From: Gammaproteobacteria bacterium
GTDB taxonomy: Bacteria > Pseudomonadota > Gammaproteobacteria > JAJFKG01
DNA length: 64,000 nucleotides
Assembly: GCA_021156325.1 (NCBI GenBank)
Contig: JAJNDI010000001.1
Coordinates: forward strand, 30,816 to 94,815
Direction of reading: 5' to 3'
Shown here: piece after piece, positions 37,001 to 42,018 of the stretch
Layout: each line of letters starts with the position of its first letter
How positions within the stretch are numbered: the first letter of the stretch is position 1
Program-made: the position numbers

Positions 37001-40000
37001 TATAACAAAAATGCAATTCAGTGTAAAAAAATCAATGGACCATTGCTGATCCGAAAACCATTCAGAGGGGACTCTGTTTTATTTTGATATCGATCCGAAA
37101 GAGGGTATTCGTGATAGGGTTGAAGGTCACACTGATTCAGCTTTTAACTCAACACGCAACAACACCTGACGTGATCTGAATCCGAAGCAGAGGATGACGC
37201 AACGCTGGATGTAGGGAATGCTTCGGGTATTATCTCTATCTCCGCTGCTGCAAATAGAGTGTATGAGGTACCGAAGACATAGCCGTTGCCTTGCAGTGAA
37301 TGCGTTGCTGCCGGAGCTAATTCGGGAAAAGGAGAAGACGAAGTAGCCAGCGATGTAGAGCTTGCTGGCATTGCTAGCGAGGTGACTTCTTCGACTAAGT
37401 GTTGATCTTCTGGCTTTGTCTCCAAGGCAAGTTGATTAATAGCAGGATGGGCGGGATTTTTAGCTTTCAACTCTGTGAATTCCATTTGGAATAAAACAGG
37501 ATTTTCATGTTGGATACGTCTTAGATAATTGCAGTCTTTTTCTTCCATCCACTGACGAATAGCAGGAGAGTGCGTATCAGTGAATTGGTAGTGAATCCAA
37601 TACCATTCATCTTGATCAGGAAATCCTTCCTCAAAATTAGGTTCTTGAGAAAATCCTCTCACGACGCAGCCACCTTCTCTATGTTTGATGTTTGATGGAG
37701 AACCAATAACGTTCTGCATTTTGTCCTTCTGATCCTTTGAATTTCTCGAGGTAACCTCTTCCATAATCTTCTTTCCACGTAAATGTGTCGTTAAATTCTT
37801 GCCAAGAACGTGAATTTTCTAACCCTCTGGTTGGAAAGGGAATTTTTGGTGAATCCTGATTTGTTCCATTTTCTCTATTCTCTCTATAATTTCTTAGCAC
37901 TTCAATCCAGGCGGTGGGCGAATCCCCCCTATCGAGTGTGCGGTATTCAGAGAAGGCAACATCGAGGGTTCCAAAATCTTGAGTTTTCACCGTAAAAATC
38001 CTTAAACCGGATAATCCCATCGGTTGAGTCCAATTCTAAAAGCCCAGATACCAGGCGGCTCATTTAAAAAAATTTTATTGCCAGAAAATCTTTTTTTCTA
38101 TGGCTTCGAAGAAATAAAGAAGTTATATGCATCAGCTGCCCTTAATGTAGTAAATGACAACTCATTATTACACATAGCTTTTGTTTATCTTTTAAATTAA
38201 AGTTAATCGAAGTGTGCATTATGAGCAGTATACATACGCGGTGGTTCGTGTTGATTGCTTAAATTCTTAATCACGCCAGATGTATTGCAACAGGCATGAT
38301 TTTCCAGTTGCGTTAGCAGCCAAGATAATAATTGCGTTGAGTCATTACCATTACGGGATAGTAACGATTCCCCATTATGTAAAATGCAAGCTTCATAGAC
38401 CATGTTTTCATACTCCTTGTATGTTTAGTTTCATCCGTTGTAGTTATCTTAACAGTGGGGTAAAGCAGACAGCATTTATGTTATTATGTGTTAGATAAAG
38501 GTTCTTATAATCGCATCACAAAATTATATACATAAAATCTTTGTCGATGCAACAAAAACAACATACCATTAACAAGATTCGAATTGAGAAAGCAGCATCA
38601 AATGCGTTGCAAATAATAAGGGGCTTGATTATCCACTATCTTTACAGAGTCGGGCTTGACAGATGGCTCTTGCATCATTGCCATCATTCTTGTCTCCCAT
38701 GACGACCAATTTTACAAACTGCGAAGCAATCAGTTTGACTTGATGCCCCAGGGTGTATGACACATCTGTTTAGAGCTAATACTGGTAGTACACAAAGAGA
38801 CATTTTTGTTTTTTTTCGGGTAACTGCGGCGTTAACCACAAGCTAAGTTCGTGATTAAGTACGACCTACGAACATGAGTTGTTTAAAAGGTCTGTGTACT
38901 TGGCCGATCGCGCAACCGCCAGCTTTTCGGGCAACTGCTATGCTGATCATCAGTAGTAATATAATAGCGATATTGCCATCAGCTTTTCATACGCTTATAA
39001 TCGCTTCCTTACGAAATTTATGCACGCAAAGGCGAAAGCCATGCTCTCTGCGCAGGAACATGGGTGCTATTAAGAGGTCAATCATTGACCGTTTGCATAA
39101 AATAAGGTTGATTCACTGCGCCTGTAGCTCATTCGGATAGAGCATCGGCCTTCTAAGCCGAGGGTAGCAGGTTCGAATCCTGCCAGGCGCGCCACTTTCT
39201 TACGCTCATCTCTTCAATTGATAGCTTTCATATAACAAGGTAATAGCAATGATTTGGTTGGGTGTTTATTACACAGCCCATTTTCTTTTTAAAGGATAGG
39301 TTATGAGCGTTATCGATCATGTCGGATTGGTAGTTAGCCATTATGAAAAAAGCAAAGCTTTTTATCTAACTTTATTAAACCCTTTGGGTATTATGTTACT
39401 GACAGAGGAAAGTGGGTTTGCGGGATTTGGAAAAAAAGACACGCCTATTCCAAGCTTTTGGATTCATGAAGGGGAGCAGCTAACCTCAAAATTACATGTA
39501 GCTTTTTTAGCTGAAAGTAAAAAACAAGTGCATTTGTTTCATGAGGCTGGGCTCATGGCGGGTGGAAAAGATAATGGTAAGCCAGGGTAGAGGAAAGAAT
39601 ATCATCCACATTATTATGCGGCTTTTATTATTGATCCTGATGGGTATAATGCTGAAGCAGTTTATTATCTATTTGATTGAAAGCAGTTTATATAGGCGTT
39701 TTTAATGAAAATTGGTTTAATCGGCGATTATAATGGTCATATTACAGCGCATGAAGCGATTCCAATTGCTTTGAAGTTAATTATAAAAAAACATGCATTA
39801 GCCTATGGAATGAAAAGCACCTCAGAAAACTACCATTGTGGATTTGGTTTTAATACAGAATTCGAATCGCGTTTTGTATCAAATAATTTTATTATTACAG
39901 GACGAGACAATCAAGATAATGCCAGATCTTTTGAATTAGCTGATCATCCTTTTTTTGTGGCAACACTGTTTCAGCCTGAAAGAACAGCATTAAAAGGCAT

Positions 40001-42018
40001 TATTCCCACGCTTATTTTAGCTTTTGTAAAAGCTGGTGCCAGTGCAAACAAATCCTAATTTGTAAATTACTTCAATAGTGAAGTGGTCGGGGTGACAAGA
40101 TTCGAACTTGCGACCCCTGCCTCCCGAAGGCAGTGCTCTACCAAACTGAGCTACACCCCGTCCTGATCGCTAATAATATTGCTGACTAAAAATCTCGGGA
40201 AACTGCAAAATGAGCTAAATCGATTAACCCATCGCGGTAATCATTATCGGGCACTTCTGCTAACGCTGCAATGGCTTTGTCTGCCTGCGCTTTGGCACAA
40301 TCGCGCGTATAATCAAGCGCCCCTGTAAGCCGCACAATTTCGACAACTTGTGCAAAATGATCTTGGTGAGGAGTAACAATACTTTTCTCAATACATAAAC
40401 GCTGCTTGGCATCACCGCTTCGCAAAGCATACAGCAAGGGTAAAGTCACTTTCCCTTTTGCCAAATCATCGCCTGGGTTTTTGCCCATCTCCCTCGCGCC
40501 GCTATTATAATCCAGTAAATCATCAATGATTTGAAATGCCATCCCCAGATGTTTGCCAAAACTGGCTAAGGCATTTTGTTCTGATTCTGAACGTTGACAC
40601 AAGAGAGCTCCCATTTGTGCTGCAGCTGAAAATAACATCGCTGTTTTGCGCTCAATGATTTCATAGTAATTAGCTTCACTGATCGCTGTTTTGCTCACAT
40701 TCAATAACTGCATCACTTCACCTTCTGCCAGGCGGTTCGTCGCAGAAGCCAGGATATCCATCGCTTGTAAATGACCTGTTTTTACAATAATTTGAAAAGA
40801 ACGCGAGTATAAAAAATCACCTACCAAGATGCTGGCTTCATTTCCCCACAAAGCGTTGGCCGTTTTTTGACCTCGCCGCAGCAAAGAACCATCTACCACG
40901 TCATCGTGAAGCAAGGTGGCGGTATGAATAAATTCAATCACTGCAGCCAAAGCAGTATGCTGGAAACCTTCATATTGAAAGAGTTTAGCACTAAGCAGCA
41001 CTAATAAAGGGCGCAGCCGTTTGCCGCCGCTTTTTAAAATATGTTCACCTAACTCTTTGATAAAAGGAACATTTGTTGCAAGTTGTGTCAGGATAAAATC
41101 ATTGGTATCGGCCAGATCGCGGCTTACCAGCGAGCGGATCGCTGCCAGTGATGAAGAAGTACTTAACATGCCGCTCCCTAGTATCTGCTCATCTGGATTG
41201 GGAGGCCATGCTAGGTTTAAGCAGTCTCCCTGTCAAGACCAGCTCAAAACTTAGGAGTAGCTGATTTTTCCTTGCTTTATTCCCTAAAGCTTCGTAGAAT
41301 GGCGACCCTTGAATAGCCCAAACAGCGGGCTTTTAATGAGAACTAAGGAGTGAAACCTATGTATGCGGTGATCGCAACGGGCGGAAAGCAATATAAAGTC
41401 AGTGAAGGTCAAGTTCTTCATATCGAAAAACTGAATAATGAAATCGGTGCAACTGTTGATTTTGATGCTGTCCTGTTAATTGGTGACGGCGATAAACTCA
41501 CGATTGGAAAACCTTATATCAAAGGCAGTACAGTGAGTGCAGAAGTCCTTGAACAAGGCCGTGGTGAAAAGATCCACATTATTAAAATGCGAAGACGTAA
41601 ACATTCGCGCAAAAAGATAGGACATCGTCAATCCTATACTGCTGTAAAAATCACCTCGATTAAATCAGCGTAATTTAAAAGGAGCAAGACAAATGGCACA
41701 TAAAAAAGCCGGCGGTAGTACCCGAAATGGGCGCGATTCTCACTCTAAACGCTTGGGTGTGAAGCGTTTTGGCGGCGAATGGGTTAAAGCTGGAAACATC
41801 TTAATCCGTCAACGCGGCACGCAGTATCATCCTGGCCTCAATGTTGGCTGCGGACGTGATCACACTTTATTTGCTTTAGTTCCTGGACAAGTTCGTTTTG
41901 TCATGAAAGGGAAAAAGCAGCGTATGCATGTTTGTGTTGAAGCTGCAGATACGCAGCAAGCGGCATAATCATCTTTGAATTTATTTTTTAGCCCCTTCGG
42001 GGGCTTTTTCTTTTTTAA

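Follow-up and report, generated by a model that had tools for sequence, protein, structure and literature searches.

CTP synthase (PyrG) carries at its C-terminus a class-I glutamine amidotransferase (GATase) domain, a class defined by a Cys-His-Glu triad within a complete alpha/beta fold. Proteins of the NF004836 family share this fold family but stand alone, without the CTP synthetase domain. The family is widespread, still uncharacterised (a search of the literature on PRK06186 found no papers) and at times selenocysteine-containing: PMC13188914 names it among selenoprotein families, giving the motif GxUxG. Here we describe a 117-aa open reading frame (ORF) in a 64,000-nucleotide stretch of a Gammaproteobacteria bacterium genome (contig JAJNDI010000001.1, positions 30,816 to 94,815; hereafter the window). 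The ORF is most likely a young, pseudogene-like remnant of a stand-alone NF004836 gene that has lost its middle through an in-frame deletion. The ORF and its retained parts are laid out as follows.

39705..40058, + strand: truncated GATase ORF, ATG start, 117 aa (from the ORF listing)
39705..39791, + strand: N-terminal retained segment, aa 1-29, profile positions 4-32; the first strand and helix of the GATase fold in the parent
39786..39800, + strand: deletion junction (approximate), aa 28-32, ..IIKKHA.., where a single residue separates profile positions 32 and 150
39795..40049, + strand: C-terminal retained segment, aa 31-115, profile positions 150-234; holds the invariant Cys of YHCxxG and the HPFFVATLFQPE motif

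The ORF translates as MKIGLIGDYNGHITAHEAIPIALKLIIKKHALAYGMKSTSENYHCGFGFNTEFESRFVSNNFIITGRDNQDNARSFELADHPFFVATLFQPERTALKGIIPTLILAFVKAGASANKS. Both KIGLIGDY..HEAIPIAL and HPFFVATLFQPE..FVKAGAS occur in it, and it matches both ends of a CTP-synthase-type class-I GATase domain with the middle absent, as the original prediction, made from the DNA alone, had proposed. Each end is significant against the stand-alone family when family members are compared with the window by tblastn: the N-terminal part (39705-39797) at E=3e-8 with P0002, 4e-6 with P0003 and up to 5e-5 among the queries P0002, P0003 and P0004, and the C-terminal part at about 1e-19 to 4e-20 with the same queries (39777-40043) and down to 3e-22 for the retained segment as a whole. 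The full-length stand-alone homologs that the prediction suggested looking for exist (about 230-250 aa) and are 45-53% identical to the ORF over about 110 aa.

Among profiles, NF004836 fits the ORF best (NCBIfam; E=5e-31, 107.6 bits), in two stretches, the better of which aligns aa 31-110 with profile positions 147-226 of 228. The score lies below the curated equivalog cutoff of 260, which marks whole-protein membership, because the middle is missing. The CTP synthase profiles score far lower: TIGR00337 (PyrG) gives 30.7 bits (E=1.3e-7) against a cutoff of 462.75, which excludes PyrG membership, and NF003792 gives 30 bits (E=2.2e-7) against a cutoff of 308. A Pfam search at E<=1 returned zero matches to the ORF, so neither GATase (PF00117) nor CTP_synth_N is recognised in it. 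Family-specific motifs are present on both sides of the junction, IGLIGDY..AHxAIP in the N-terminal part and YxCxYG, with its Cys, and HPFFxATLFQPE in the C-terminal part, and the C-terminus follows the family pattern HPFFVATLFQPE..AFV(K)A. Like the family, the ORF stands alone, without a CTP synthetase domain; unlike the family, whose members have about 230 residues, it lacks profile positions 33-149, the nucleophile included. These comparisons support placing the ORF as a truncated member of the stand-alone NF004836 family, homologous to the C-terminal domain of CTP synthase. A stand-alone relative of that domain with an internal deletion was one of two origins proposed for the ORF, and it is the one that fits: the gap coincides cleanly with positions 33-149 of the family profile.

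The extent of the gap was read from a family profile of 236 positions, built from 37 full-length relatives (225-250 aa) found in the exhaustive search described below. Positions 33-149, about 117 of the 236, are absent from the ORF across a single junction; counted from an alignment with the window's own PyrG (A1), the gap is roughly 145 residues. The prediction of some 130 missing central residues was right in order of magnitude. In the family alignment (A2), the deleted columns hold PFLGTCGGFQH, the nucleophile elbow GxC/UxG (GTCGG or GTUGG), and the GTCGG motif falls in the gap, as expected from the predicted loss of the region around the catalytic Cys. CTP synthase structures match the A2 profile over its full length in their GATase domains, at residues of about 290-535 (3nva, E=6e-49; 1s1m, 1vco, 5u03 and others), which puts the catalytic Cys, together with the fold's core, in the deleted part. 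The ORF thus has neither the triad nor the complete alpha/beta fold of a class-I GATase: the Cys region is deleted and the triad His is Gln (FQPE). At 117 aa, it is also too short for a stand-alone domain of this family, which measures about 225-250 aa. The missing middle was sought elsewhere in the window with family queries, and tblastn matched only this ORF and pyrG. A search for att-like direct repeats and for microhomology at the junction gave only short, chance-level matches.

The ancestor would have been a stand-alone NF004836 gene of about 230 codons, encoding a class-I GATase fold whose nucleophile was Cys or selenocysteine. Its first ~30 and last ~87 codons would have been fused when one in-frame deletion removed about 117 codons, and with them the central strands and the GxC/UxG elbow. 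The gap is a direct observation; that one event caused it is what we infer. Against a family profile cut down to the retained regions, the ORF scores 136.7 bits, and intact members not used in building that profile score 102-163 bits; the deletion therefore looks recent, or else the remnant is constrained, two states that substitution rates cannot separate. Both other copies of this DNA (JGI and Logan) are 100% identical, with zero variants for a ratio of nonsynonymous to synonymous substitution rates (dN/dS). With the nucleophile elbow and the central strands removed, the product would be unable to carry out the chemistry of the family: it is probably inactive, and it probably does not fold. 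The AlphaFold2 (AF2) model hints weakly that no stable domain forms. Its mean predicted local distance difference test score (pLDDT) is 63.6, and values below 50 cover residues 26-44 (the junction) and residues 1-10, which form the first strand in the parent fold but show no strand in the model.

The conservation of the shortened form was assessed in a protein space of about 15 billion proteins in total. A word-indexed search of 5.8 billion 90%-identity clusters returned at 100% only the protein itself (a protein of the metagenome-assembled genome, MAG, with locus tag K0R12_71), followed by matches 42-63% identical. An exhaustive phmmer search of 1.84 billion representatives gave 616 relatives at E<=1e-3, with the protein itself alone below 1e-30; the closest relatives in this search are all full-length (P0030, 53% identical; P0034 and P0038, 52%; P0033, 51%). 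Neither protein search found a close ortholog or a conserved 117-aa form, and the window protein is a singleton cluster. Conserved orthologs of 117 aa had been named in advance as an outcome that would speak against a degraded gene. The ORF bears operational marks of a pseudogene: an essential part present in all intact homologs is gone, and the shortened form has no conserved orthologs.

Forms with an N-terminal and a C-terminal part around an internal gap do occur elsewhere. They make up 25 of the 172 retrieved relatives (P0001-P0172), a share that is partly a product of the library's design, in which each variant of odd length stands as a separate 50%-identity representative; some derive from assemblies made at the protein level (SRC) and are possible artefacts. 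Each has different end points, e.g., 26→141 in P0035, 32→135 in P0119, 38→152 in P0151, 44→158 in P0054 and 48→154 in P0080. The sequences closest to them are longer forms; P0080, for example, shares 88% identity with P0089, in which part of the middle is kept. On these alignments, the short forms are independent events, polyphyletic rather than one clade.

Two of the short forms can be seen in their genomic context. Pseudomonas sp. L13 (L083:4001-4360) and P. libanensis (L084:4001-4246) carry different in-frame internal deletions, leaving 119 aa and 81 aa, in the same syntenic gene, with a divergent LysR regulator upstream and an ABM-domain gene downstream, in a 4-nt overlap with the ORF. In Pseudomonas, in-frame remnants might be favoured by selection for translational coupling. 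Across the family, recurrent N-plus-C forms could be kept for a function of the C-terminal module (the invariant Cys and HPFF..FQPE) or for the need to translate through the ORF, a reading we regard as improbable; the cases behind it are the window ORF, the two syntenic Pseudomonas deletions and about 20 metagenomic forms. A conserved partner gene was considered and rejected: the neighbour is a glyoxalase gene here, the ABM-domain gene in Pseudomonas and other genes elsewhere.

The other proposed origin, a degraded duplicate of the local pyrG, has to be set against the intact gene, which lies where it was predicted, about 12 kb upstream.

27065..28804, + strand: pyrG, intact CTP synthase (Pfam: CTP_synth_N, E=2e-123; GATase, E=1.5e-42), 10.9-12.6 kb upstream of the ORF

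The listed pyrG ORF begins with TTG, ~23 codons ahead of the CTP_synth_N match, which starts at residue 24 (region 27065-27135); the real start of pyrG probably sits downstream of the listed TTG.

A tandem or segmental duplication of the pyrG GATase domain followed by decay would account for the presence of both in one window, and the C-terminal 35 residues of the ORF do align to PyrG residues 525-559 (12 of 35 identical, 34%; BLASTP E=2e-4). An insignificant similarity to PyrG had been named beforehand as grounds for dropping the relationship; it is significant here, both in this comparison and against TIGR00337 (E=1.3e-7). The pairwise alignment succeeds for the C-terminus only, the N-terminus of the ORF being below significance against the window's PyrG alone. 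Identity to the stand-alone members, by contrast, is 45-53% over about 110 aa; the NF004836 profile gives 107.6 bits and TIGR00337 30.7; and the ORF has the family-specific FQPE and YHC where PyrG has HPE and RHRY. Descent from the local pyrG was rejected on the profile comparison and on this 34% over 35 residues, and that part of the original prediction falls away; we consider such an origin exceedingly improbable. The source being a MAG, the short ORF could also reflect a full-length gene collapsed in metagenome assembly, or a binning error. Against this, a JGI contig is 100% identical over the 20,354 bases compared, a 989-bp Logan contig from run SRR35179664, assembled by another pipeline, spans the whole ORF at 100% identity, and the flanks of the junction share no repeat prone to collapse, so that an artefact appears very improbable.

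Several observations weigh against the ORF being a pseudogene-like remnant. The reading frame is open from ATG to stop codon, with zero frameshifts; every nearly invariant family column within the retained parts is preserved (A2), as it would be in a constrained small protein; similar N-plus-C short forms exist in other lineages; no ancestral or sister allele was found, which leaves the deletion to be deduced from distant homologs only; and the low confidence of the AF2 model counts weakly, its alignment being shallow (15 rows). A functional mini-protein, in which the N-terminal cap and the C-terminal subdomain, the latter with the invariant YHCxxG Cys and HPFF..FQPE, are under selection for a regulatory, binding or dominant-negative role, would draw on the open frame, on the preserved residues and on the 25 of 172 relatives with the same general layout, and residues 51-80 of the model reach pLDDT 79-88 (the C-terminal hairpin-and-helix part alone, about 80). 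The protein is nevertheless a singleton with no ortholog of the same architecture; the other short forms differ in their end points, have longer forms as their closest kin and may in part be SRC artefacts; the nucleophile motif and core strands are gone; the N-terminal strand and the junction are modelled below pLDDT 50; and the adjoining gene is a nonsense pseudogene. A mini-protein is therefore unlikely, and the ORF is better read as a pseudogene-like remnant. It resembles pseudogenes made by in-frame internal deletion in being shorter than all intact homologs, in the loss of its catalytic motif, in its nonsense-mutated neighbour and in its compositionally odd, gene-poor, tRNA-flanked surroundings; it differs from them in that its frame is open, its retained sequence is undecayed and its annotation (NCBI, JGI) is that of a hypothetical protein, not of a pseudogene. 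It has been deposited both as "hypothetical protein" and as "CTP synthase (UTP-ammonia lyase)", and would be better flagged as a truncated, probably inactive NF004836 remnant.

The remnant, a small case of accessory-gene decay in a segment flanked by tRNA genes, opens no new question of its own. It does draw attention to its family. A full-length member from a Terriglobales MAG (L085:2599-3372 of DATFDP010000010.1) reads through a single in-frame TGA at FSGT*GGFQH and is a selenocysteine form, in agreement with the GxUxG motif given for NF004836 (PMC13188914). Gene callers split it into 93 + 123 aa, and many matches of about 100-135 aa are therefore not true short proteins. Where GATases have the triad His (HPE), most of the family, like the ORF, has Gln, and the remainder has another residue (FQPE or FVPQ; A1, A2 and the PDB alignment); a second Cys, in YxCxYG, is invariant across the family. 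Since the canonical triad His is lacking, intact members may themselves not be true glutaminases. The selenocysteine forms, the non-His triad position and the second invariant Cys hint at redox rather than glutaminase chemistry.

The ORF sits in a two-gene segment between two tRNA genes, with ispB beyond the right-hand one.

39118..39194, + strand: tRNA-Arg(tct) (ARAGORN; Rfam, 72.2 bits), left border of the two-gene segment
39303..39683, + strand: glyoxalase/VOC gene (PF00903) with an in-frame TAG at 39588-39590, 22 nt upstream of the remnant
40084..40160, - strand: tRNA-Pro(cgg) (ARAGORN, Rfam), right border
40186-41169, - strand: ispB (polyprenyl_synt annotation), adjoining tRNA-Pro(cgg)

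The glyoxalase gene had been predicted to carry a nonsense mutation, and it does: the ORF before the TAG (39303..39590) covers positions 2-92 of the 121 of PF00903, and read-through extends the Pfam match to 2-120. Together with the remnant, it would make up a short piece of accessory DNA, bounded by tRNA-Arg and tRNA-Pro, in the process of being lost. Composition sets the locus apart as well. The remnant has a G+C content (GC) of 0.342 and a G+C content at third codon positions (GC3) of 0.22, and the glyoxalase gene has a GC3 of 0.28, against a GC of 0.43 and a GC3 of 0.38±0.04 in core genes; local GC falls to 0.35-0.37 around the locus. The longest interval without an ORF of at least 150 aa is 37765-40185; such ORFs otherwise cover 83% of the window, and no other part of it is both poor in genes and low in GC3. 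Taken together, these features describe the tRNA-flanked segment as compositionally distinct, decaying accessory DNA. Elsewhere the window is unremarkable core genome, densely packed with genes; rplU, rpmA and obg follow ispB.

No family member or glyoxalase gene lies near ispB in other species (0 of 80 ispB loci; the best relative is 53% identical), and the same 80-locus synteny comparison yielded no sister allele, leaving the deletion undated. A terminator scan around the locus found none, and an Rfam scan of the whole window found three tRNAs and nothing else. The promoter scan gave one promoter-like site, matching at 11 of 12 positions, at 38973-39001, upstream of tRNA-Arg. From tRNA-Pro(tgg) (34694) up to the locus, the ORFs have no Pfam match on record; those in the stretch between tRNA-Pro(tgg) and tRNA-Arg(tct) (34770-39117) lie at 34897-36024, 36304-36867 and 37144-37764. 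GC in this stretch is low in places (0.33-0.40), and 38404-39117, about 700 nt, holds no called gene; the stretch may be an acquired or decaying accessory region.

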